From an uncultured Leptospira sp. (GTDB lineage: Bacteria > Spirochaetota > UBA4802 > JAGODF01), in assembly GCA_964502925.1 (NCBI GenBank), contig CAZCYH010000017.1, forward strand, positions 1,755 to 65,754: a stretch of 64,000 bases of DNA. Reading direction: 5' to 3'. The position numbers and the translations under genes were made by a program. Of the stretch, positions 10,243-25,985 are shown one piece after another; position 1 is the first letter of the stretch, and every line of letters starts with the position of its first letter. Under the pieces are notes generated by a model. That model saw only the letters and a program-made list of their open reading frames with translations. It had not been told where the DNA came from and did not search any database.

Positions 10243-12918
10243 TTGATAATTATGAAATTCATGACAAAAAAATTTTTTTCTTGCATTTTCCTCACAATGC
10301 TTTATAATAAAAAACTTCAGCAGGTCATTATCTGTATTGTATATATCACCCGATGTGCGTGCGTTTCCAGAATCATCCGGGTACCACTAACCCAATTTGG
10401 CGTATGTATGCTTGATAATATATTTTCAAAAAGTAAACTCACCGACGAGGTGATCGAAATTCTTCATCATATTCCCGACATGGTGATAATTGCAGGTGCG
10501 GATAAAAAAATTCTTTTTGCCAACCAGACGGCGGAACGGATGTTAGGCTCCGAAAATAATTCACTCAAAGGCAAAGACATAACCAGCGTTCTCAGCGATA
10601 AAATTTCTCAATTCCCTGAATGCCTACGGAAAGCAATCGGAACTTATAGCAATTTAGACCCCATCGATACATCACTTTTAACTTCCGACGGCCCCACTCC
10701 CGTCAATCTTTCCATAAAAAAAATTTCCGGCAAAAACAGGAAAGCTACTTTAGCCATCATCGCTCGCGATACCAGCAAAACAAAAATACTCAGCGAAGAA
10801 AAAAAGGAACGAATGCTTGCCGTAAGCGCTCTCATCGAAAGCGAGGAACGGTACCGACAGATAGTGCACACCATCGAGGACGGCTTTTTCGAAGTTGACC
10901 TTGGGGGCAATTTGACTTTTTTCAACGAAGCTCTACAGAAAATTATTGGGCATAGCGCTGAGCGTTTGCGGGGCATGAATTACCGTGAATTCATGGACGA
11001 TAAAAACGCAAAAGAGGTTTATAAATCATTTAACCGGGTCTTCCGCACTGGAATTTCCGAAAAAGCTTTCGACTGGGAGATAATTTCGGCCGACGGCAGC
11101 CGTCACATTGTCGAAACATCAATATCGCTCATTTGTCAGCACGGTGGAAAACCGAGCGGCTTTCGCGGCATCGTCCGCGACATCACCGAGCGCAAGGAAG
11201 TCGAACGAAAACTCAGGCAAAGCGAAGAGCGCCTCAAACAGAGCGAAGAGCGGTACCGATCGCTCGCGGAAAACAGTTCCGACATCATCAGCGAAGTGGA
11301 TATGGAAGCGCAATATACCTATATCAGTTCAAACGTGAAGGAAATTTTAGGTTACACCCCCAGTGAGGTTGTCGGACATCGGTTTACCGATTTCATTCAT
11401 CCCGAAGATTTGAGCAAAGCTGAACGAGTCTGGCGCGAACGCGTGCAGGATTTCACCCTTCGTTTCAGAAGCAAATCCGGTCAGTGGCGCTGGCTCGACT
11501 GCGCTTCGCGGACTTTCAGCCTCTCCGACGGCAGGGAGCGCGTCGTTACCATCTCCCGCGATGTAACCGAACGTAAGATCGAAGAAGAAAAATACCGCGA
11601 AAATGAAATGCGCCTTCGCCTTCAGCAGATGGCTCTTGCAGAACTTGCAAAGAATGAATCGCTCTACCGTGGCGACGTGCGCGCCGCGTTTGTGACTATC
11701 AACATGGTCGCCTGCCACAATCTAAATGCTACTGCTAGCAGTATCTGGCTCTTTGAAAATGAAGTAGAATTTTTTGCCCGATGCTACGATCGTTTTAATT
11801 CAAAGGATAACACGCATTCAGAAGGCGAAATAATTGATTTCTCTAAACATACAGATATTCTCAAAGTTCTGGACGCGCTCCGAATCATCGAGCTTCGCAA
11901 TGATACCGAAGAGAATTCGCATCTAAACTTCCTTCACGATTATTCCCGCATCCAAACTGTCACCATGATCGTGCTCATTTCGTTTCGCCTCGGAGGAAAT
12001 ACCATCGGGATCATCGCAATTGAAGAATGGGAAACCAGCCGCACGTGGTCGAGCGAAGAAAAGCAATTCGCGGCTTCGCTTGCGGATTTTGCTTCGCTTG
12101 CAATGGAAACACACAATCGTAAAATAGCCGAAGAATCGCTCCGGTTCAGCGAAGAGATGCTCCGCAAGCGCAACGAAATGATCGAAAAAGACCTTAAAAA
12201 CGCGCAGATCATACAAAAGGCGCTTTTGCCGAATTCCATACCGCCCGCGGAAAATATTCGCATGGAATATAAAAATTTCTCCGTGGACGCGGTGGGAGGC
12301 GATTATTTTTCGTTCACACCTTTGAAAGAAGGAGGTCTTGGAGTATTCATCGGAGATGTTTCAGGGCATGGGGTATCCGCCGCACTTTTCCTTTCGCTTT
12401 TGAAAGCAACTGCAGACCGGGCTTGTCGCCAATTCGGACAGAGCCCCAGGGAATTCATTGAATATCTCAATCGGGAACTCATCGAAACCATGCCGCACTA
12501 TTTTGTGACCGCCATATACGGATACTTCTCCAAACCAAATGCTGATGGTTCCATCAAGTTCACCTTTTCTAAAGGCGGACACCCCAATCCGATCATACAG
12601 TGGAAATCTACCGGAAAAATTGAAATGCTGCGCTGCCGGGGAACAATTTTGGGAAAATTTGATCATGCAAAATACGAAGAAATATCCCTCATACTCCAGC
12701 CGGGGGATCGTATTTTCCTCTACACCGACGGCCTACCGGAAATGACCAACCCGGAAAAACAGATGTTAGGGTTCAACGAGCTTGTTAATCTCATCGAAGA
12801 GTGCGTAAAAGACGACCTTAAAGAAACGCTCCACGCTATACTCCTCGAAGCAGACTCCTTCCGGAAAGGCGCGGATATCGAAGACGATATCGTACTCATC
12901 GGGCTCGAAGTGTTGTGA
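10243..12918 (+). CDS. Multi-PAS/GAF sensor fused to a PP2C-type (SpoIIE/RsbU-like) serine phosphatase. The true start may be the internal ATG at 10408 (MLDNIFSK).
   Basis: Repeated PAS S-box segments and a GAF-like segment. The C-terminus has PP2C motifs (GGDYFSF...FIGDVSGHGVSAALF...LYTDGLPE). Confidence 0.8.
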   Translation: MIIMKFMTKKFFSCIFLTMLYNKKLQQVIICIVYITRCACVSRIIRVPLTQFGVCMLDNIFSKSKLTDEVIEILHHIPDMVIIAGADKKILFANQTAERMLGSENNSLKGKDITSVLSDKISQFPECLRKAIGTYSNLDPIDTSLLTSDGPTPVNLSIKKISGKNRKATLAIIARDTSKTKILSEEKKERMLAVSALIESEERYRQIVHTIEDGFFEVDLGGNLTFFNEALQKIIGHSAERLRGMNYREFMDDKNAKEVYKSFNRVFRTGISEKAFDWEIISADGSRHIVETSISLICQHGGKPSGFRGIVRDITERKEVERKLRQSEERLKQSEERYRSLAENSSDIISEVDMEAQYTYISSNVKEILGYTPSEVVGHRFTDFIHPEDLSKAERVWRERVQDFTLRFRSKSGQWRWLDCASRTFSLSDGRERVVTISRDVTERKIEEEKYRENEMRLRLQQMALAELAKNESLYRGDVRAAFVTINMVACHNLNATASSIWLFENEVEFFARCYDRFNSKDNTHSEGEIIDFSKHTDILKVLDALRIIELRNDTEENSHLNFLHDYSRIQTVTMIVLISFRLGGNTIGIIAIEEWETSRTWSSEEKQFAASLADFASLAMETHNRKIAEESLRFSEEMLRKRNEMIEKDLKNAQIIQKALLPNSIPPAENIRMEYKNFSVDAVGGDYFSFTPLKEGGLGVFIGDVSGHGVSAALFLSLLKATADRACRQFGQSPREFIEYLNRELIETMPHYFVTAIYGYFSKPNADGSIKFTFSKGGHPNPIIQWKSTGKIEMLRCRGTILGKFDHAKYEEISLILQPGDRIFLYTDGLPEMTNPEKQMLGFNELVNLIEECVKDDLKETLHAILLEADSFRKGADIEDDIVLIGLEVL

Positions 12919-13428: not shown

Positions 13429-16400
13429 TCACTCATTTTTTTTCGCCATAATCATCGCAATCGCCGATATCACGTCATCGCGTGAATACGGCTTCAAAAT
13501 GATGCCATCAAAGCCGTACTCCCCGGGGCGAGCCAACACCGGATCGCCATAATATCCGCTTGAAACGATGAGCACAGGGCGAGGCGTTATCTTGCCGAAT
13601 TCAATCGCCGCATCTTTTCCACCCATGCCACCGGGTACCGTGAGATCCATAATGACAATATCAAAAGGTTTTCCTTCCTGCAAAGAAAGTTTGAATTTTT
13701 CCAGCGCCTCCCGACCGTCGCGCGCCGTATCGCATTCATGGCCAAACGATTCGAGTATCGATGAAAGCGAATCGAGGATATACTCCTCATCATCCATAAG
13801 AAGCACACGGTATTTCGCTTCAAAAGTTTTTGCATCGTTCTTTTGATTCTCTTTTTTTTCTGCTGCTTCATACGAGGGAAGATAGACAGTAAACGTACTT
13901 CCGCTTCCGTGACGGGACTGCACGTGGATATATCCCTCGTGTTTTTTTATGATGGAATAGCAGGTGGCAAGCCCCAGGCCGTAGCCGCGATCCTTTGTAG
14001 TGAAATAAGGATCGAAAATTTTGCCGATATTTTCCTCTGAAATCCCCTCGCCCTCATCAATAAAATCAAGCCTCACATAGCGACCTTCCCTGAGTGGCAG
14101 ACCTTCCGGGGCGCGTGAATTTGAAATCATTACTTTGATTTTTCCCCCTGAGGGCATTGCCTGAATTGCGTTGATAAGCAAATTGTTGAAAACCTGGGAA
14201 ATCTGCCCGGAATCGAGCACAAGAGACCAGAGTTGCGCCTCGGGGGTTACATTGACTACCTCACAAAGGCAATTCGAACCCGTCAGCGTAAGTTCAATGC
14301 TTTCCCGAAGCAATGCCATAATCGACACCGATTTCTTAACGGGGTTGCCACCCCGTGCGAAGGTGAGAAGCTGCCGCGTCAGATTGACGGCCCTTTCCCC
14401 CGCTTTTTCAATCATCGAAATCATCCGATTGAACTTTTCATCAATTGTTTTTTTTGTCTTCAACATTGATGCGTTCGCAAGAATCGCGGTGAGAAGATTA
14501 TTGAAGTCGTGCGCGATACCTCCCGCAAGGACTCCGAGCGATTCGAGGCGGTTTATTTTGCTGATTTCCTGTTCGAGCTTTTGACGCGCCGTGATGTCGC
14601 GAAGCGCTAAAACCGCCCCGGTGATGTTTCCCGATTTATCCCGCAATGGCGCTCCGCTCAATTCCACCACAATCGATTCCCTTCCTGGCACTCCGAGCAG
14701 CATATTGCTGTTTTCGAGATGTCCCTCGGCGACGATCTCGTGCACCGGATCCACCTTCTCTGTGCTTGCATGCATCATTACGAATGAAAAAATATCCGAA
14801 AAGCGTTTGCCTTCGGCATTTTCAAGCAAGCATCCGGTGAGCCTTTCCGCGCTCGGATTCATGTACGTTATCGCACCAGAAATATCCGTGGTCACCACAG
14901 AATCTGCGATTGACCGAAGAGTGATGGAAAGCTTTTCGCGTTCTTTCGCCAGGCTGTCATTCGCTTCCAGAAGCTCATTTTGCGTGTTGACCAATTCCTC
15001 ATTGAGCGCTTCAAGTTCCTCATATTGGGAGTGTATTTCCTCGAATTGCTGGAGGATGGTCTTTTCCGCTTTCTTGAGCGTTGAAATATTTGTAACTATT
15101 AAAAGCGTTCCAGTCTTCCCTTCCGTGCTGATAGCCACGGCCGAAATGAATACGTCCACATCTTTCCCCTCTTTGCTTTTGATGCGTGCCTCGTATTGCT
15201 CCTGCGCGGCGTTTCCTTCAATCCTTGAGAGATAATTGGAAAACACCGGATTGGTCCCGTCGGGTTGTGGAGGAAATATCTGCTTAAAAATATCAACGGT
15301 ATATAACTCGCTTTCGGAATAGCCGGTCATCTCGATGAAAGACCTGTTTGCGTATCTGACTGTTTCATCTACAATCAGTAAGATTCCTTCGCGCGCGTTC
15401 TCGACAAGAGCGCGATATTTTTCCTCGGATTCCTTCAACGCGGAAAGGGCTTTTTCCCGTTCCTGCCTGAGGCGCTTGAGCTGATCGGCAACCCCAAACG
15501 ACAGAAGAAGCGCCATAATTGAAGCCCCCGCCTGATATCCCCACATGGATATTGCCCCGCTGGTAGTGAGGCCAAACGCGCGCAATGCTGTCAGCGCAGC
15601 ACCAACAATAAAAGCCGACCACGCGGACATGAGAAAGATTGCCGCACGATCTTTTTTGTACATCAGTATTGAACCGCTTATAATAAAAAACAACACGGTG
15701 ACGCCTGCAAATGCTGTCGAGACCTGAGTTGCAATGTGATACTCCCCAAAAAATGGAAACACAAGCAGCAATATATTTAGATACATGAAATATCGCGCGA
15801 ATGCATCGAACCGCGGAATCTCCGATTCCATCCGCAAAAAAGACCGGGAAAACGCCAGCGCAAAGACAACAGTGAGAAACAGAAAAAACGGGTTTGAAAT
15901 ATTCGACCATCGGATGGCGTTCGACCAGAGAAATTGAAATGAAATGCCGTTCTGTGCCATTGAAAAAAGGGTGACCGCCGCAATAAAGAGCGCAAGAAAG
16001 AGATAGCTTCTTTCACGGTACGACAGGAAAATGAAGAAATTATAGATAAAAAGCGCAAACATAATTCCATAATGCAAAAACAAAAGTGCCAGTTCGAATT
16101 GTACGCGCCAACTGAAATCTTCCGGTTCATGCGCTTCTAAGGGAACCGTGATGGAACCTTCGGATTTTACCCGAAGATAGATTGTCGATTCCCCCGGCGG
16201 CTGAATCACGGGAAAGGCGATGCTGCGGCACTTAATTTCCCTCGAAGAAAAGGGGACGCTGTCGCCTCCCTGATGGCGGATAAATCCGCGCGGTCCGGGT
16301 AGAAACACTTCCACCAGGTCGATGATGGGATAATTATACTCTAATATCCACTTCCTGCTCTGCGGAAAGGGATTGTGAACTTTCAGTCTGAACCAGAATG

Positions 16401-16695
16401 TCGAATGAGAATACCCGAAGCTCGGATATTCTTTGTTTACCGGCAAAAATTGCAGACCAATATCTTCACGTAGAATATCTTTCAATTCAAGGCGCGCGCT
16501 TTCGTCAATCAAGTATTCAAGATGAACTCCGAGAGGCTTTCCGCTAAAACCATCATTCAGGACAAACGGCTCTGGAAGAGCATGCGCCAGAAGCGGAAAG
16601 AAAACCGAAATCGAAATAACAAACACTTTCAGGCACAATCGCATGAGAAACGCGCCGTTGAATATTGCCACTTTTCTTTTTTTGTGCTCCGACAT
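13429..16695 (-). CDS. Hybrid sensor histidine kinase: 7TMR-DISM extracellular domain, 7TM region, PAS domains, HisKA, HATPase and a C-terminal receiver.
   Basis: Periplasmic N-domain and about seven TM helices. H-box GIAHDFNNLLTAI, ATPase N/G boxes and a receiver (LLMDDEE...DIVIMDLTVPGGMGG) are all present. The start may be the internal Met of the signal peptide (MRLCLKVF). Confidence 0.85.
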   Translation of the reverse strand: MSEHKKRKVAIFNGAFLMRLCLKVFVISISVFFPLLAHALPEPFVLNDGFSGKPLGVHLEYLIDESARLELKDILREDIGLQFLPVNKEYPSFGYSHSTFWFRLKVHNPFPQSRKWILEYNYPIIDLVEVFLPGPRGFIRHQGGDSVPFSSREIKCRSIAFPVIQPPGESTIYLRVKSEGSITVPLEAHEPEDFSWRVQFELALLFLHYGIMFALFIYNFFIFLSYRERSYLFLALFIAAVTLFSMAQNGISFQFLWSNAIRWSNISNPFFLFLTVVFALAFSRSFLRMESEIPRFDAFARYFMYLNILLLVFPFFGEYHIATQVSTAFAGVTVLFFIISGSILMYKKDRAAIFLMSAWSAFIVGAALTALRAFGLTTSGAISMWGYQAGASIMALLLSFGVADQLKRLRQEREKALSALKESEEKYRALVENAREGILLIVDETVRYANRSFIEMTGYSESELYTVDIFKQIFPPQPDGTNPVFSNYLSRIEGNAAQEQYEARIKSKEGKDVDVFISAVAISTEGKTGTLLIVTNISTLKKAEKTILQQFEEIHSQYEELEALNEELVNTQNELLEANDSLAKEREKLSITLRSIADSVVTTDISGAITYMNPSAERLTGCLLENAEGKRFSDIFSFVMMHASTEKVDPVHEIVAEGHLENSNMLLGVPGRESIVVELSGAPLRDKSGNITGAVLALRDITARQKLEQEISKINRLESLGVLAGGIAHDFNNLLTAILANASMLKTKKTIDEKFNRMISMIEKAGERAVNLTRQLLTFARGGNPVKKSVSIMALLRESIELTLTGSNCLCEVVNVTPEAQLWSLVLDSGQISQVFNNLLINAIQAMPSGGKIKVMISNSRAPEGLPLREGRYVRLDFIDEGEGISEENIGKIFDPYFTTKDRGYGLGLATCYSIIKKHEGYIHVQSRHGSGSTFTVYLPSYEAAEKKENQKNDAKTFEAKYRVLLMDDEEYILDSLSSILESFGHECDTARDGREALEKFKLSLQEGKPFDIVIMDLTVPGGMGGKDAAIEFGKITPRPVLIVSSGYYGDPVLARPGEYGFDGIILKPYSRDDVISAIAMIMAKKNE

Positions 16696-16752: not shown

Positions 16753-17310
16753 CTACATCATGCGCGAACCAAATCTATTCTGGTGCACGATTTCCGAAAG
16801 TGGTTTTCTGGGCGGGCCTTCTTTACCAGCCACCGCGGGTTTGCCAACGGGAACAGCGACCACTACGTTATACCCGGCGGGAACATCAAGAATGCGGCGG
16901 CATTCATCATGATTCATAAAACCTACTACCACCGTTCCCAGTCCCAGATCGTGCGCGCGCAGGCACAGATTCTGCACCGCCATCCCCACATCGAACATAT
17001 GCCAGCTGTCGAACCTTGTCACTGGTGCGCCTTCTTTGTAGCCGGAGAGGCGCACTTTCGCGCACACCACAATGAGCGCTGAACACGCAAGCGAGCATTT
17101 TCGAGCAGGGTTGTTCAGCGAGTACGTTTCGGTTATTTTTTCGATGAGCGTTTTATCTCTCACCACGATGAATTCCCACGGCTGCACATTTGCCCACGAG
17201 GGCGCGAACCTCGCCGCATCGATCATTTCACGAATTTCATCATCCGAGACTAAGTAATCCGTGAATCTCCGGATGCTTCTTCTTGTAAAAATGGCTTCCT
17301 TCAATTCCAT
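16753..17310 (-). CDS. Nitroreductase family protein.
   Basis: RRSIRRF motif near the N-terminus; 185 aa with typical nitroreductase-fold features. Confidence 0.8.
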   Translation of the reverse strand: MELKEAIFTRRSIRRFTDYLVSDDEIREMIDAARFAPSWANVQPWEFIVVRDKTLIEKITETYSLNNPARKCSLACSALIVVCAKVRLSGYKEGAPVTRFDSWHMFDVGMAVQNLCLRAHDLGLGTVVVGFMNHDECRRILDVPAGYNVVVAVPVGKPAVAGKEGPPRKPLSEIVHQNRFGSRMM

Positions 17311-17353: not shown

Positions 17354-18313
17354 TCACAGTACGAATTTATATATACACCTTCCTTCATAGACCCCGGTAT
17401 TGACGAAGAGGTCTCTGATGCCGGCAGGAATGAAGCGCTCCATCTCTTCAGTGAGCAACAGGTCTCCCGGCCTGGCGAATTTCTGACCTAAATGGTAGAG
17501 CGAATTTATTGAATCGGAAATAATCGTGCCGGTCTCCCCCCGGGACCGATATACCGTATTGCCCAGATGCATCGCGATCCGATACGATACTGTAAGTCCA
17601 AGCCTGCACTCCTCGGTGCTGATGATGGTGCGGTTTATCTGCATGCGCACCGCGGCAAGGACCGCCTCGCATTTTTCGCCGTCGAAAGGAATCAGCACCA
17701 GGCCGCCGAAGCCCGACCAGATCCAGACGCGACCTTTTAATGGCGCAATAGTTCTTTCAAGAAAATCATGAACGATTTGAGATCGTTCCTTTAGCTGTTT
17801 ATCGCTCGCGTTTTTTTTAAGTTCCGCTTGATTATCCATCTCGAAATACATCAGGCAGAAGGTGTATTCTTTGCCTTCGTTCACAGTGCTCCAATCGCTT
17901 CCAGATGGAATGTACGATGATGCATTCTCATTCGATGCTTCTTCCGGCACTTCAATGGTTCGAAAAGAAGCCACACGCAGAAGGCGCGAAACCGCCACGG
18001 GAGACTTTACAAATTCTGTGCCAAGATAATCCGCTCCGCCGCGGTGAAAAAGATCGGCAGGATCTTTAATTATGCCTTTGGGATCAATAATACCCCACAG
18101 AATTTGTTTTTGCTCTTCAAAGAGTTTTATTATTTTTTTTTCTTCACCGAGCTTGCCGATTGAAATATCCACATAGACCAGGGAACCCGCGGAAAGGGAT
18201 GCGATATCATTTTTCAATTTTGCGATTTCAATATACTCCACCGAAGCATCTTTTTTCTTAATTTTCGAAAAAATCGGATGTGGTTTCCCATTTCCAAAAA
18301 CATACACGCGCAT
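17354..18313 (-). CDS. Class III nucleotidyl cyclase (CHD)-like domain protein, paralog A. It has degenerate metal-binding positions and an uncharacterised N-terminal domain.
   Basis: The C-terminal 170 aa align to the cyclase-homology-domain pattern (FCLMYFEMDN...GRVWIWSGFGG...RIAMHLGNTVY...SDSINSLYHLGQ). The two canonical Asp positions are replaced by E and F. Confidence 0.4.
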   Translation of the reverse strand: MRVYVFGNGKPHPIFSKIKKKDASVEYIEIAKLKNDIASLSAGSLVYVDISIGKLGEEKKIIKLFEEQKQILWGIIDPKGIIKDPADLFHRGGADYLGTEFVKSPVAVSRLLRVASFRTIEVPEEASNENASSYIPSGSDWSTVNEGKEYTFCLMYFEMDNQAELKKNASDKQLKERSQIVHDFLERTIAPLKGRVWIWSGFGGLVLIPFDGEKCEAVLAAVRMQINRTIISTEECRLGLTVSYRIAMHLGNTVYRSRGETGTIISDSINSLYHLGQKFARPGDLLLTEEMERFIPAGIRDLFVNTGVYEGRCIYKFVL

Positions 18314-19285
18314 CTATTTTTCTCCTGCAAAGCGATAAGTGTACAGTTTCATCTTCTCCGGACTATTGATTACCTTGAATTCACAGGCAATGATGTCATC
18401 AAGGGTGGTGTATACCACCTCGCTGATCGTCAGAGAATTCGGGTTCGTATAGAGCGACTCGTACTGAATGGTTTTCCTCACCGGATCTAATTTTTTCAAT
18501 TCCTCCTCGCTGTCGCTGTAGTCGCAATTGCCGCAGTGGATAGCCAATCGCACCCGGAGCGGTTCACCCAGCCTGCAATGAAGGCGGTTGTACAGAAAAA
18601 GCTCGTGAAGAATTTCCATTCCAGAGGTGACTGCCATCTGGTTTTTATGCGAAAAATAAAACGCGATGAGCCCTCCGTCTCCTTCCCAGCTCCAGATGCG
18701 CCCGTTGCGGGAATAAATCGCGGCTTTCACGATTTCGCCGAAATCGCTGTAGGTATAATTGACCATTTCTGCACTGTATTTCCGCACGAGTTTCGAATTT
18801 CCCACAATATCGAAACGCAGGAATGTGAGGACGTATTCATAGCCCTCGCGGAGCACGCCCCAGTTGCGGGTCCTCCGCACTGACTGGTCCTCGACAAACA
18901 GCTTATTGTGCGAATCATACACGAAGCCGTGCTCACGCATTTCCTTCACGATATCGTGCAAATAGGCAATGTCGTATTGTTTTCCCATCCATCCGCGGTT
19001 TGATATTTCCACTAAAATATTCACAAATTGAGGGAAGAGTGCGGAATCGTTGATGTCGTAGATTATCTGACGCGCGGCGTCAAGGTTGGGAATTGAAATA
19101 CTGTGAGGAAATCCTGTTCTCTGGTTCAAATCATAGTTCGGAAGCAACCTTTTAACCAAATGTTCCATGGTATGGACATTCATCGACTGCGCGAGAGATC
19201 GAATTGCGATGTTTAGAAGGCTCGGTTTAACTTTCATACCATCTCCTACCCGTGCATTGCGATGATGCAAACGGGCAAATACCAT
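18314..19285 (-). CDS. Class III nucleotidyl cyclase (CHD)-like domain protein, paralog B. It retains both putative metal-binding Asp residues.
   Basis: Clear paralog of 17354..18313 (FLRFDIVGNS...GRIWSWEGDGG...RLAIHCGNCDY). The stop of B abuts the start of A. Confidence 0.4.
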   Translation of the reverse strand: MVFARLHHRNARVGDGMKVKPSLLNIAIRSLAQSMNVHTMEHLVKRLLPNYDLNQRTGFPHSISIPNLDAARQIIYDINDSALFPQFVNILVEISNRGWMGKQYDIAYLHDIVKEMREHGFVYDSHNKLFVEDQSVRRTRNWGVLREGYEYVLTFLRFDIVGNSKLVRKYSAEMVNYTYSDFGEIVKAAIYSRNGRIWSWEGDGGLIAFYFSHKNQMAVTSGMEILHELFLYNRLHCRLGEPLRVRLAIHCGNCDYSDSEEELKKLDPVRKTIQYESLYTNPNSLTISEVVYTTLDDIIACEFKVINSPEKMKLYTYRFAGEK

Positions 19286-19363
19286 GTCAAGGATTAATCA
19301 TATTATACCACTATGAAAGTATTTTTGTTGATACACACACATGAATACTCGTACAATGGCCGT

Positions 19364-21389: not shown

Positions 21390-24300
21390 TCATTTTCCCC
21401 CTTTGGTTTTTCGGTATTCTTGTGGCGAAATCCCCATTATTTTTACGAACGCACGATTGAAGGTAGAGAGGCTTTCAAACCCAACCGCATAGGCAATATC
21501 AATTATCTTTTCTTTGCTTTCAGCCAGCTTCTTTGCGGCATCTTCCACCCGCAGCCTGTTGATATAATCACCAATTTTTTCACCGGTAATCGATTTAAAT
21601 GCCTTGCCGAGATGATCGGGATTGATATTCAATGAAGCGGCAAGCCCCTCGCGAGAGACATCAGAAGTATAATTTTTCTTGATGTATTCAATCGCTTTAT
21701 GCACCTTCTGTTCGGTTGCGATCGAAAAAAGTTCCTTGGGGAATTGTTCCTTCAATTCAACCGGCTGAACACTGCCGAGTGCTTTTGCTACAATCACAAG
21801 GAATGAACCAATAGCACGTATGTCTTTTTTGTCGGCATTATCATCTTCGAAGGTGGTTTCAACCAGACACATGCCTAAGGTTTTCCTTTCTCTCAAAAGC
21901 GGAAATGCTGTGTAATGTGACAATGAGATTGGATCGGCTTCATCACGATGAGCAGGTTTTTCTTCTCTCTTAATTTCATGATACAATTCCTCGAGTCGTG
22001 CGCGTTCGATTCCTTTCGACGACAGGATATCAAAGCTTTTCTCTCCTTCGTATATCACAAAAACACAGCCCGCACGCGCACCTACAAAATCCATCACAGC
22101 CACAAGCGCGGTTTCAGCAATATCTCTCGCTTCTTTCTTTTCAAGAATTTGGCGCCCGATTTGCGCAAGCAAGGCATGCCGCTCCTTACTGAAATATCGC
22201 TCCAAGGGCGTTTTCTCATCCTTAACAGAAATGCCCAGAAGCCGTGAGAGCCGGGACACATATTGTTCCGAACCGATTTCCACACTCAACCGATACGCTT
22301 CCTCGAATACAGCATGCGCGGTCGAAGCTTCCCCCTTTTTGAGATGATAGTTCCCTATTTCCACCATCGTCCGAAGCTGTTCAAACGGCCGGTTGTGTCT
22401 GCACGCGTGCTCTTTCGCCTTTTGAAAAAGCTCATACGCGATGCGATGTTTTCCCTCACGTTCCACTGCGCACGCATGTACGCGTAGCGCAGCCCCATGA
22501 TGCGTCGGCCACGCGCGAGTTTTCGCAACTGCAACTTCGCACGCGCGAAGCATTTTTTTCATCAGAGATGCCCTATCACGCTTTGAAACTTGTCCCCCTC
22601 TGGCGTCATACTCATCGATATACGCCTGCCCAAGATTCACATAGACTGGAACGATGTACTGCTTTAAAAACGAGTGCTTTTCATGCGGCCCTCTGGCTTC
22701 TTCAAGATATTCAATCGCGCGTTCGAAATTCCCCGCTTCGAGTTCATTGCATCCAAGTTCATTGAGCGCGGAACAGAAATTGAACCAAATACCCCGGCTT
22801 TTGCTCAAATCGGCTGCGCGCTTCACGAATTCCACTGCTCTGTTCGCATTTCCCCTCTCCCTGTGATATTGCGAATAATAGATGAGCGCCGCGCCTTCGG
22901 AATATTCATCACCAAGACGGCTGACGAGTTCATAATACTCATCATTTATTTGAATAGCTCGCGCATATTCTCCCCGATAGTAATGGCAATGTTCAAGTCC
23001 ATTCAGCGTCATTGCATATTCTTTGATATCGCCAAGCTCGTGAAATATCCTTTTCGCTTCTTCGAAATACTCAATCGCTGTTTCGTATTCAGCCCGCCAC
23101 TCGTAATAGTACCCCATAAACTCGAGCGACTTTGCAAGTCCCCAGCGATTGCCCAAGTTCTCGTTCATTTGCCGCGCTTTCCGAAGATACTTCAAAGCAA
23201 TGTCAAAAAGGGGAATGGAAATATAGAGTGCACCAACTCCATAATAGCTCAACGCCAGTTCGGAAGAAGCGCCGATGTACCGCTCGGAAATATTGAGCGC
23301 GTGAATATTCGACCACACGAGCTTTAATGGGTCGTTGAGAGCATAGCTCATCCCCAGCGGCTCATAAAATTCGATAATCTGGCGATAATGATCCGCATCA
23401 CTTCCTTGTTTTTTACGGACAAAGAAAAAAGGAAAAGCAAGATGAAGAAGATGTTTCATCGCTTCTTTTGCGAGGGCAAAAAATACCTGATTTTTCGTGC
23501 GCGGCACATAATCACCCAAAAGCGCAAGACCTTCCGCCGCATGCGTTTCGCAGCTTTTCCAGTCGGCTTTGCGATAGTGGGCCTGACACAATACGAGATG
23601 CGCACGAGCTCGTCGATCAATTTGTTTAATCACTGGCATGAGAGAATCCAGGATAGATATTGCTTCATCGTATTCGCCAATAATCACATCAACCGCAGCA
23701 AGCTCAAGCTTGCATTCGATCATCTGCTCATCATCCTTCCTTCCAAGCTCTCCAAGCATGGCAATCGTTTTATGAAAATAGCGGGCTGCATCGCGGTAGG
23801 CATAACGATCTTTCGCAAGCACCGCCGCGGGATACAGATACCGAACCGCACTGTTAAACTCACCTCCTTCTGAGTAATGATGCGCCATATCGAATATTGC
23901 TTTTTCTTTTTCAATCTCCTCCGCCTCGAGGGCATGAGCAATTTTCAGATGAAGCGCCTTTTTGTTCGTCGGATCTATGCGTTCAAGAAATATTTCCATG
24001 ATACGATCGTGCGAGAACTGAATCACATCGCTTTCCGGGACATCCTCTTTGAAAATGCGCAATTTCCGTGCAGCTTCAATTGCCGAAACACAAGCATTCT
24101 CTGGTATATTGAGCACTCTGGCTATGAAACGATAATCGATTGCTTTTCCGATAACTGCTGCGCACGCAATCACAGCTTCTTCGGTTTCATCGAGCAGCCT
24201 GGCGCTGTGAGCAAGTAAATCCAGGAGCGAATCGGGAATACTCTGTGCGTCTATGTGCTGTGTGTATTTCCATATTTTTCCATCAAACACAGCCATGCCG

Positions 24301-25985
24301 CCTTCGATGATATTTTTTAACACTGTTTTGGCGTACAGCGGATTTCCCTCACTTTTCTGATAGATAATATCCGCAATAGCCGCCACTGCATCCTCACTTT
24401 CTTCCATCATTTCCGCGACAAGCCCTCTGACTGCCAATGCATCAAGCGCATTCAGCCGTATGGAGATGCTCGCCGCATATGGCGCATTTGCCGGCGTAAG
24501 CTTTGCGTGTGATTCATCGCCCTCACGCGATGTCAGAAGAACCATCACGCGCGCTCGCTCGGTGATACTAATAAGTTCCGAGATCACACTGACACTCGCG
24601 GCGTCGATCCACTGCACATCGTCGATGAAAATAACAGCCGCAGAACCGAGGAGTTCAATTGAGCGCAAAAATCGCGCCAGGAGTATCCCGGCATTACGCG
24701 CGCTTTCTTCCATTTCTTCGTTTTTTAAAATAGCTGTATCCTCGAATACCTGCACAATGCCGGGTTGAATTTTCGCGATTAACTTCCGACAGGATGTCAT
24801 TTCTTTGGCAAAAAGCTCCCGGATTTTTGCCTTTGTATGTTCATCGGATGTCGCGTACAATTTTAACAATGAAGCGAAAAGGCCGTTCAATGCTTCGTAG
24901 GGAGTATTTGCTGATTCGCGATGGCATTTCGCTTCGAGAAAAACTCCGCCACGTTTTTCGACTTCAGTTTTAAACTCTTCGATGAGGCGGCTTTTTCCGC
25001 ACCCCGCTCGTCCTTTCACCTCAACAGATATTCCGCTTCCTTGCCGAACATCAGCAAATATTTTAATAAGGCGTTCCATTTCCGCTTTCCGCCCTACCAG
25101 CGATGCACGATAATTAAGCTGACGAACGCCGTCTTTCTGCCCAATGGCGAAACATCTCTTCCCCTCCAGAAACTGATCGAGATCGTACACCAGCGCCTCG
25201 GCGCGCCCATATCGATGTGAGGGCTCTTTTTTCAACAATCGCAAAACAATTGCTTCAAGCACTTCGGGAATGTCGGGATATATTTCCCGAACTGGTACGA
25301 CTTTTTCTGAAAAGCCCGTTGCGCCAAAATCGCTTTCTGAAAAAGGAAATTTTCCCGTCAGAAGCACGTACAGAAGAACTCCCAGAGAATATAAATCGCT
25401 CCTCTCATCAACTGGCCTCCTGATAAGTCCTCGCTGCTCTGGAGGCAGGAAGTCCAGCAATTCATGAAGCTGTTCAGCGGCATAATCATCAGGGTAATCG
25501 AGGATATGTGCGAAACCAAATCCCCACAGGAGTACTCTCTCGGCATCTATGAACACAAATTGTGGAGAAATCGCGCGGTGAATAACCCCTTTGAGGTGAG
25601 CATGAGCAAGTGCTTCGGCACTACATTTCACGATAGATACTTTCTTTTCAAGGGAGATGCTGAAAAACCCGTCTTTTGTAATATATTCCGCCAGTGATTT
25701 TCCCGCAAACGCCTCGGTGATGACATACGCCCGATCGAAAAAATCACCCGCCTCGATGATGCGAATGACTGAAGTATGATGAACTTCTTTCATTTTTGCA
25801 GCAATGCTTTTAAAGCGAATCACATCGCCGGGGCGGCGCGACATCACCGGTGCAGCAATCACAAATGCGTTCACATCGTTCCCGGCAATGATATCATGCC
25901 CAAAGTACCGAGTGAAGATAGGGTTTTCTGAAATTATTTCTTTCAGCAGATATTTTCCGTTAATAGTTTTTCCCAAGAATTCCAT
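21390..25985 (-). CDS. Large multidomain regulator: N-terminal Ser/Thr-kinase-like pseudokinase, AAA/STAND ATPase, TPR repeats, GAF-like domain and a C-terminal AraC-type HTH.
   Basis: Kinase fold with HRD changed to HRA (VIHRAISPQ) and DFG changed to GFG. Walker A reads GRAGCGKS. TPR-like repeats are long and helical. The C-terminus is AraC-like (IAYAVGFESLSTFNRAFVKIMGISPQEYRK). Confidence 0.8.
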   Translation of the reverse strand: MEFLGKTINGKYLLKEIISENPIFTRYFGHDIIAGNDVNAFVIAAPVMSRRPGDVIRFKSIAAKMKEVHHTSVIRIIEAGDFFDRAYVITEAFAGKSLAEYITKDGFFSISLEKKVSIVKCSAEALAHAHLKGVIHRAISPQFVFIDAERVLLWGFGFAHILDYPDDYAAEQLHELLDFLPPEQRGLIRRPVDERSDLYSLGVLLYVLLTGKFPFSESDFGATGFSEKVVPVREIYPDIPEVLEAIVLRLLKKEPSHRYGRAEALVYDLDQFLEGKRCFAIGQKDGVRQLNYRASLVGRKAEMERLIKIFADVRQGSGISVEVKGRAGCGKSRLIEEFKTEVEKRGGVFLEAKCHRESANTPYEALNGLFASLLKLYATSDEHTKAKIRELFAKEMTSCRKLIAKIQPGIVQVFEDTAILKNEEMEESARNAGILLARFLRSIELLGSAAVIFIDDVQWIDAASVSVISELISITERARVMVLLTSREGDESHAKLTPANAPYAASISIRLNALDALAVRGLVAEMMEESEDAVAAIADIIYQKSEGNPLYAKTVLKNIIEGGMAVFDGKIWKYTQHIDAQSIPDSLLDLLAHSARLLDETEEAVIACAAVIGKAIDYRFIARVLNIPENACVSAIEAARKLRIFKEDVPESDVIQFSHDRIMEIFLERIDPTNKKALHLKIAHALEAEEIEKEKAIFDMAHHYSEGGEFNSAVRYLYPAAVLAKDRYAYRDAARYFHKTIAMLGELGRKDDEQMIECKLELAAVDVIIGEYDEAISILDSLMPVIKQIDRRARAHLVLCQAHYRKADWKSCETHAAEGLALLGDYVPRTKNQVFFALAKEAMKHLLHLAFPFFFVRKKQGSDADHYRQIIEFYEPLGMSYALNDPLKLVWSNIHALNISERYIGASSELALSYYGVGALYISIPLFDIALKYLRKARQMNENLGNRWGLAKSLEFMGYYYEWRAEYETAIEYFEEAKRIFHELGDIKEYAMTLNGLEHCHYYRGEYARAIQINDEYYELVSRLGDEYSEGAALIYYSQYHRERGNANRAVEFVKRAADLSKSRGIWFNFCSALNELGCNELEAGNFERAIEYLEEARGPHEKHSFLKQYIVPVYVNLGQAYIDEYDARGGQVSKRDRASLMKKMLRACEVAVAKTRAWPTHHGAALRVHACAVEREGKHRIAYELFQKAKEHACRHNRPFEQLRTMVEIGNYHLKKGEASTAHAVFEEAYRLSVEIGSEQYVSRLSRLLGISVKDEKTPLERYFSKERHALLAQIGRQILEKKEARDIAETALVAVMDFVGARAGCVFVIYEGEKSFDILSSKGIERARLEELYHEIKREEKPAHRDEADPISLSHYTAFPLLRERKTLGMCLVETTFEDDNADKKDIRAIGSFLVIVAKALGSVQPVELKEQFPKELFSIATEQKVHKAIEYIKKNYTSDVSREGLAASLNINPDHLGKAFKSITGEKIGDYINRLRVEDAAKKLAESKEKIIDIAYAVGFESLSTFNRAFVKIMGISPQEYRKTKGGK

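Follow-up and report, generated by a model that had tools for sequence, protein, structure and literature searches.

The 64,000-nucleotide (nt) window analysed here, a single stretch of contig CAZCYH010000017.1 from an uncultured Leptospira sp., contains two abutting genes, designated B and A, whose products each end in a cyclase-homology domain and which we regard as probably encoding the two halves of an obligately heterodimeric class III nucleotidyl cyclase. The preliminary description of this DNA had reported two adjacent genes at the locus, and the open reading frame (ORF) list of the window places both of them on the minus strand at those positions (Table 1). As a mechanical ORF, gene B extends over 18314..19285. 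Translation almost certainly begins further in, at the ATG of 19237, because homologues of approximately 306-308 amino acids (aa) begin at MKVKPS and because an AGGAG (19243..19247) precedes this codon by 5 nt, and all B residue numbers are counted from it. The alternative ATG at 19285 lies only ~10 nt past a -10-like TATAAT and is without a ribosome-binding site. The TAG stop of B (18314..18316) directly abuts the ATG of A (18311..18313), with a further AGGAG 8 nt upstream of that ATG within B itself, so that the two genes look translationally coupled. A promoter-like site upstream of B was found by a consensus scan that returned 5 sites in comparison with 4.1 expected from shuffled sequences, and is not significant alone. 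Homologues of A fall into 114 clusters, and record P0121 is identical to the A protein.

The C-terminal halves of A and B are paralogous, with 24% identity over 150 aa (BLASTP E 2e-14), and the two family profiles align with a probability of 99.3% over 181 columns (hhalign E 6e-21). This relationship is confined to the C-terminal halves, as the N-terminal halves do not align. The original suggestion that the two proteins are paralogous therefore stands for their cyclase-homology domains, and the accompanying idea of a shared N-terminal domain falls, A beginning with a receiver-like domain and B with a helical one. AlphaFold2 models built with the family alignments as input reached a predicted local-distance difference test (pLDDT) score of 92.3 for B, with a predicted template-modelling (TM) score (pTM) of 0.83, and a pLDDT of 88.8 for A. 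In Foldseek comparisons with the PDB the top 50 matches of A and of B were all catalytic domains of class III adenylyl or guanylyl cyclases, including CyaC, Cya2, Ma1120, RhGC, 3mr7, Rv1900c and Rv1625c, with best E values of 2e-10 for B and 8e-9 for A and TM scores on the target of 0.63-0.81. The B family profile additionally matches 3mr7 at E 5e-6 and Ma1120 at E 9e-4. On the strength of these models a class III cyclase fold, with its palm-like beta-alpha-beta-beta-alpha-beta core and dimerisation arm, is confidently predicted for both proteins, in agreement with the fold first proposed for them.

Standard domain models are far less responsive to the pair. Neither window protein matched Pfam PF00211, even at E <= 10, and NCBIfam and Pfam gave no cyclase match for either of them. 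Within the families, 19 of 84 B members had PF00211 as their highest-ranking Pfam match, weakly and with a best E of 8.9e-5, and 0 of 94 A members matched it, while two proteins of a sister lineage, P0325 (25.0 bits) and P0335 (23.4 bits), exceed the PF00211 gathering score of 21.9. The preliminary description had held that the lack of a significant PF00211 hit would refute its proposal. We judge this yardstick too strict and do not take the missing match as a refutation, because structure, family profiles and the sister-lineage relatives together establish the homology.

Table 1. Features of the B/A gene pair, with positions in the window
Feature	Position	Strand	Remarks
Promoter-like site	19302..19331	-	TCAACA, 18 nt, TG-TATAAT; upstream of B; consensus scan, weak
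Gene B	18314..19237	-	307 aa + TAG stop; predicted metal-binding, C1-like half of cyclase
B N-terminal domain	18860..19237	-	residues 1-126; five to six helices + beta-hairpin (AlphaFold2); lineage-restricted
B cyclase-homology domain	18317..18859	-	residues ~127-307; Foldseek, family profile, PycC model
B Asp143, predicted first metal-binding Asp	18809..18811	-	motif RFDIVGNS; 84/84; aligns with metal Asp of Ma1120 and 3mr7; codon checked
B Asp187, predicted second metal-binding Asp	18677..18679	-	motif WEGDGG; 84/84; aligns with GD Asp of Ma1120 and 3mr7; codon checked
B Arg230, triphosphate-binding Arg of canonical enzymes	18548..18550	-	'vRiGiH' strand; 84/84; aligns with Ma1120 'vRigih' Arg
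B residues 254-258, RKTIQ (family K...E)	18464..18478	-	canonical transition-state Asn/Arg positions, both lost
Ribosome-binding site of gene A, AGGAG	18322..18326	-	inside 3' end of B, 8 nt upstream of A ATG
Gene A	17354..18313	-	319 aa + TGA stop; predicted transition-state, C2-like half of cyclase; receiver-like N-terminal domain
A N-terminal receiver-like (beta-alpha)5 domain	17960..18313	-	residues 1-118; profile + AlphaFold2
A cyclase-homology domain	17357..17896	-	residues ~140-319; Foldseek, hhalign to B family
A acidic cluster codons	17834..17842 and 17711..17713	-	A-family columns 158, 160, 201
A Glu158 at first metal-Asp position	17840..17842	-	E83/D4 of 94; motif FEMDN; aligns with B D143
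A Phe202 at second metal-Asp position	17708..17710	-	F69/Y11/H6 of 94; motif SGFGG; aligns with B D187
A Thr263 at second substrate-specifying position	17525..17527	-	Asn-7; Asp in Rv1625c; T68/E9/K5/S4 of 94
A Asn270, predicted transition-state (ribose-orienting) Asn	17504..17506	-	94/94; aligns with Asn of 3mr7 'davNvaarL'
A His274 at transition-state Arg position (Asn+4)	17492..17494	-	H88/N6 of 94; aligns with 3mr7 Arg

Distribution of the catalytic residues

Canonical positions were assigned by the rules given for Rv1625c (PMC4174876), in which D256 and D300 bind metal, K296 (D300-4) and D365 (N372-7) specify the substrate, and N372 and R376 stabilise the transition state. Residues were mapped along two independent routes, one linking the B profile with 3mr7 and Ma1120 and then B with A by hhalign, the other taking the A profile directly to 3mr7, and the two routes agree. 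All column counts are drawn from 84 B-family and 94 A-family sequences.

Gene B encodes an invariant set of two metal-position Asps and the Arg of the 'vRiGiH' strand, and has lost both transition-state positions. Position 254, which aligns with the Asn of 3mr7 and with N270 of A, is Lys in 71 and Arg in 6 of the 84 sequences, and position 258, which aligns with the 3mr7 Arg and with H274 of A, is Glu in 36, Gln in 16 and Asp in 15. A presents the complementary picture, with Glu158 and Phe202 in place of the Asps, an invariant Asn270 followed by His274, and R245 at the 'vRiGiH' Arg position in 84 of 94 sequences. The substrate Lys position holds N/S183 in B and M/I198 in A and the substrate Asp position L/I247 in B and T263 in A; by these counts neither the Lys/Asp pair associated with ATP nor a Glu/Cys-type pair associated with GTP is found in A or in B.

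Several elements of the preliminary description can be revisited on this basis. Its assignment of both Asps to B (RFDIV, D143; EGDGG, D187) is borne out, as is that of E and F to the aligned positions of A (FEMDN, E158; SGFGG, F202). The view that substrate and transition-state residues are diverged in both proteins holds for the substrate pair and fails for the Asn, which A keeps throughout its family. The proposed heterodimer of an active and a degenerate partner survives in that one catalytic site plus a pseudo-site is the best reading, and has to be amended in that B is itself incomplete (K/R254, E/Q/D258) and A would supply N270 and H274. Judged from their sequences, A and B appear to be complementary half-enzymes, each chain being incomplete and keeping what the other has lost, in the pattern of C1/C2 and of the soluble guanylyl cyclase (sGC) alpha and beta subunits.

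The 'dead' metal site of A is not without conserved features. Conservation extends to an acidic cluster of E158 (88%), D160 (93%) and D/E201 (77%, with Gly in the A of the window), which would face the conserved basic residue 254 of B, and this pseudo-site may bind a cation or another ligand.

Conservation of the pair and its sister-lineage relatives

Relatives of B are present in 263 GTDB species-representative genomes, and the locus counts given here refer to the best 80 B loci among these representatives, all of which are metagenome-assembled genomes of Spirochaetota. Of the 78 loci with enough room downstream of B, 77 have an A-family gene immediately after it, always in the order B then A, and across these 77 loci the aligned ends of the two genes are mostly 3-10 nt apart. 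Even where identity has fallen to ~42% and none of the neighbouring genes correspond to those of the window, the pair is retained. Clustering of the flanking ORFs of the 80 loci found no third gene conserved with the pair: the best flanking cluster, present in 24 of the 80, is a generic PAS/histidine-kinase cluster, and the other clusters reflect lineage synteny.

The only exception among the 78 loci (L007) comes from a close relative of the window organism and carries a single B/A fusion gene. This 304-aa gene (P0007; L007:6001-6915 on contig CAKZSV010000006.1) replaces the pair and joins B residues 1 to ~190, containing the N-terminal domain and both metal Asps, in frame with A residues ~205-319, containing the Arg, Thr, Asn and His. 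The two parts meet at the GxGGL motif common to B and A, where microhomology is limited to ~6 nt, and because this is too short for an assembler join the fusion is probably a real deletion of ~960 base pairs. The predicted product would reunite all of the catalytic residues in one chain that is devoid of the receiver-like domain.

Sister lineages provide a natural control for the heterodimer model. A profile of the B N-terminal domain, searched exhaustively against 1.84 billion representatives, recovered only 105 clusters, with the domain always at the N-terminus. The distant matches are of three types: B-like proteins without the Asn; complete single-chain proteins, in which both Asps (in SIDIV and GDGG) and the Arg are accompanied by an S-[DE]-x-I-N-x-x-x-H-L-E motif, whose Asn...His signature (N-x-x-x-H) is the same as that carried by A in the window; and proteins in which the B domain is fused to an unrelated C-terminal domain. 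In a small sample (n = 6, on short contigs), an A-like gene was found downstream of 0 of 4 complete-type genes (L084-L087) and of 2 of 2 Asn-less genes (L088, L089). The partner in L088 (L088:2513-3508) matches the A profile at 1.9e-28 and keeps SDALNSVAHL without the Asps, and that in L089 (L089:1630-2694), whose gene is cut by the contig end, matches at 1.7e-6. The presence of a partner thus follows the loss of the Asn, which is the pattern that the heterodimer model predicts. Since the complete single-chain sister proteins carry the same Asn...His, His in place of the Arg is characteristic of the family and not a product of decay, and the combined picture suggests a complete ancestor, already bearing the B N-terminal domain, whose duplication and subfunctionalisation gave rise to the pair.

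Two further observations concern these relatives. Proteins of the third type (P0314, P0320, P0321, P0326, P0332) have in common a C-terminal domain of ~230 aa whose NASKA and EGAGLGI motifs resemble, by eye, those of GHKL ATPases, an assignment that neither Pfam nor a PDB sequence search supported. In L087 (L087:1961-2734) and L088 (L088:3527-4180) the gene after the cyclase gene or pair encodes a small protein, similar in both loci, that has Tyr/Asn/Lys-rich repeats and is secreted or lipoprotein-like; it may be a lineage-specific conserved neighbour.

N-terminal domains and genomic surroundings

The N-terminal domains of A and B are unrelated to each other. The A family profile finds four receiver-domain structures with E values of 0.003-0.02, and the AlphaFold2 secondary structure of residues 1-118 fits a (beta-alpha)5 pattern; Pfam Response_reg found no match in A, either in the window protein or across the family. 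Asp49 occupies the phospho-acceptor position in 92 of 94 sequences. The acidic-pair position (residues 7-8) is S/D in the family and G7-N8 in the window protein, D77 stands at the receiver Thr/Ser position in 94 of 94, and the receiver Lys at position 99 is Lys in 41 of 94 and T99 in the window protein. Of the phosphorylation quintet (Asp-Asp, Asp, Thr/Ser, Lys), Asp49 alone is kept in the A of the window. Because the other four residues are missing, this domain is most likely a pseudo-receiver. The helical N-terminal domain of B gave no Pfam match, and a PDB sequence profile search returned nothing beyond FliM at a chance-level E of 0.6.

By Pfam, the neighbours of the pair in the window are a nitroreductase, a hybrid histidine kinase, a lipase and a secreted protein without an assigned function. 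The nitroreductase (16753..17310, minus strand) and then the 7TMR-DISM/PAS hybrid histidine kinase (13429..16695, minus strand) follow A at gaps of 43 and 57 nt, and in this sub-lineage B, A, nitroreductase and kinase may be transcribed together as one four-gene unit. In L005, whose B is 76% identical, the pair has a similar kinase downstream, and this arrangement is missing from more distant loci. Phosphorylation of the receiver-like domain of A by the co-directional kinase is unlikely for the window protein, as four of the five receiver residues are gone and the kinase is not conserved beside the pair in other loci.

As had been noted from the outset, no cyclic nucleotide (cNMP)-binding effector was found adjacent to the pair, either by Pfam on the neighbours or by clustering of conserved neighbours over the 80 loci. 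None of the real ORFs of the window matched a crude regular expression for the phosphate-binding cassette, a search narrower than a complete domain scan. A conserved effector, phosphodiesterase or CNBD gene travelling with the pair finds no support in the flanking-cluster counts of the 80 loci.

The wider region is rich in signalling genes. An 891-aa protein (10243..12918, plus strand) combines PAS domains, in up to three Pfam stretches, with GAF and SpoIIE/PP2C phosphatase domains and lies near the kinases. A large multi-domain signalling regulator of 1531 aa (21390..25985, minus strand) joins a Ser/Thr kinase, a STAND-type AAA/NB-ARC ATPase, TPR repeats and a C-terminal AraC-type helix-turn-helix.

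A composite active site and its alternatives

The fold of both domains, their paralogy, the complementary residues, the strict co-occurrence and the constant gene order, which we regard as established, support a model in which A and B would be the two halves of one class III nucleotidyl cyclase, expressed from a coupled two-gene operon. The heterodimer would be obligate rather than optional, because A and B are complementary half-enzymes. Their cyclase-homology domains would pair head-to-tail around a single composite active site, to which B would contribute the metal Asps D143 and D187 and the triphosphate-binding R230, corresponding to mammalian C1 or sGC alpha, and A the ribose-orienting N270, H274 in place of the transition-state Arg, and a base pocket containing T263 and I198, in the role of C2 or sGC beta. 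The second, pseudo-symmetric site would be formed by E158, D160, F202 and R245 of A together with S183, L247, R254 and Q258 of B. It would not support catalysis by the canonical mechanism, but it is conserved as well and may bind a regulator. The degenerate receiver-like domain of A and the lineage-specific helical domain of B would probably carry the regulatory input. We consider this arrangement, an obligate B:A heterodimer with one composite site, a conserved non-catalytic pseudo-site and regulation through two different N-terminal domains, to be the probable one. The B and A pair is predicted to be catalytically active, and its product is likely a 3',5'-cyclic NMP; no particular base is indicated, because neither the Lys/Asp pair of adenylyl cyclases nor the Glu/Cys pair of guanylyl cyclases is present.

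Several of our own observations weigh against this model or favour a pair without enzymatic function. Both chains lack the substrate-specifying Lys, and the transition-state Arg is replaced by His in A (88 of 94) and by E/Q/D in B, so canonical catalytic competence is not guaranteed; Pfam recognises neither protein; and no cNMP-binding effector or phosphodiesterase is conserved nearby. The pair could accordingly be a nucleotide-binding pseudoenzyme, that is, a pseudo-cyclase heterodimer whose cyclase fold would serve only to bind a nucleotide or another ligand, or as a scaffold. We consider this improbable, given that the exact catalytic set of two Asps, Arg and Asn is absolutely conserved and split between the partners, which is hard to explain without catalysis, that sister proteins above the PF00211 threshold retain the N-x-x-x-H signature as well, and that active cyclases with non-canonical substrate residues are known, such as PycC (PMC11224242). 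The conserved acidic residues E158, D160 and D/E201 indicate that the second site may not be simply dead. Heterodimerisation itself is read from residues and genomics, and the natural control that speaks for it comprises the six loci described above.

It is also improbable that B is a self-sufficient homodimeric cyclase using Lys/Arg254 in place of the Asn, and that A, as a catalytically dead paralogue, has no role beyond regulating B or receiving its product. The invariance of both metal Asps and R230 and the conserved basic character of position 254 could plausibly be accommodated in this way, and bacterial class III cyclases (PMC4174876) and PycC enzymes (PMC11224242) are normally homodimers. 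Such an arrangement would, however, leave N270 (94 of 94) and H274 (88 of 94) unexpectedly conserved in a dead domain and would place E/Q/D258, which is acidic or neutral, at a position that calls for a phosphate-binding Arg. It also fits poorly with the strict co-occurrence in 77 of 78 loci, and with the sister lineages, in which the single-chain relatives with Asn...His lack a partner and the Asn-less ones have one.

The resemblance of B to PycC further raises the question of a Pycsar-type anti-phage system, in which a pyrimidine cyclase would signal to an effector. The PADLOC PycC model PDLC02367 matches the window B at 2e-9 and all 84 of the 84 B members (best 1.3e-9), and BcPycC (7r65) is among the B profile matches at E 0.02. 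The PDLC02367 match spans only positions 37-117 of the 226 in the model, which is the generic metal-Asp half, and no CNBD effector of the TIR or transmembrane (TM) type (PycTIR/PycTM) is adjacent to the pair or conserved across the 80 loci. The pair instead sits among housekeeping genes (PBP1, flagellin, PyrK-like) with synteny conserved within the sub-clade, all 80 retrieved loci come from one phylum, unlike a mobile defence island, and PycC enzymes are homodimers with complete sites in contrast to the split site of the pair. A defence role is therefore very improbable, and we reject it.

Comparison with characterised systems helps to place the composite-site model. In mammalian adenylyl cyclases (mACs), C1 carries the metal Asps and C2 the substrate and transition-state residues, giving one active site and one pseudo-site (PMC4174876). 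A and B resemble C1 and C2 in being two incomplete paralogous domains, with the Asps from one and the transition-state residues and base pocket from the other. The alpha and beta subunits of sGC are likewise a C1/C2-like paralogous pair of incomplete cyclase-homology domains. The mAC domains are fused in one polypeptide and the sGC subunits come from unlinked eukaryotic genes, whereas A and B are separate bacterial proteins of a coupled operon, have His for the transition-state Arg and no Lys/Asp or Glu/Cys pair, and bear receiver-like and novel helical regulatory domains. Because the complete-site sister proteins share the B N-terminal domain, they point to an independent origin of the pair by duplication within the spirochaete lineage.

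Among bacteria, class III cyclases have been described as homodimers with two sites and all six catalytic residues in each chain (PMC4174876, PMC9552081). The homodimeric Rv1625c, Ma1120, CyaC, Cya2 and 3mr7 are the best structural and sequence matches of the pair and show the same metal-Asp and Arg motifs as B and the same Asn motif as A, yet neither A nor B carries the full catalytic set. Complementary point mutants of Rv1625c, attributed to Guo et al. 2001, are said to rebuild one site and would be an engineered analogue of the natural A/B split. PycC cyclases are symmetric homodimers with a class III-like fold, two metal Asps and non-canonical base-recognition residues (PMC11224242). PycC is the closest curated sequence model for B and shares these last three features with it, but is encoded beside a CNBD effector, in contrast to the split site, the lack of any effector found and the chromosomal housekeeping context of the pair. 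The NeoR/RGC rhodopsin-guanylyl cyclases of chytrid fungi are class III enzymes that work only as heterodimers of separate polypeptides (PMC8815786), as proposed here for A and B, although they are eukaryotic, membrane-bound and light-gated. No natural bacterial two-gene complementary class III cyclase was described in the literature searched, whose coverage is incomplete, so that a description may exist elsewhere.

A more far-reaching version of the model can be put forward tentatively. Here, duplication and subfunctionalisation in Spirochaetota would have recapitulated C1/C2 independently, in the form of two proteins, the Asp/Asp/Arg plus Asn/His/Thr site, without a Lys/Asp or Glu/Cys pair, would yield neither cAMP nor cGMP but a different product, and the acidic pseudo-site would serve as an allosteric input. 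Taken as a whole we consider this version rather unlikely.

In summary, the fold, the chemistry and the principle of the heterodimer are known, and what is new in the pair is the bacterial two-protein form, the regulatory domains and the non-canonical residues. Published descriptions treat the one-site heterodimer as a eukaryotic innovation (PMC4174876, PMC9552081). An operon-encoded pair with complementary half-sites would offer a simple two-protein model for the evolution and regulation of asymmetric cyclases, accompanied by single-chain relatives with complete sites and by a natural in-frame B/A fusion. In Spirochaetota the pair marks an unannotated putative signalling enzyme that standard domain models have overlooked.

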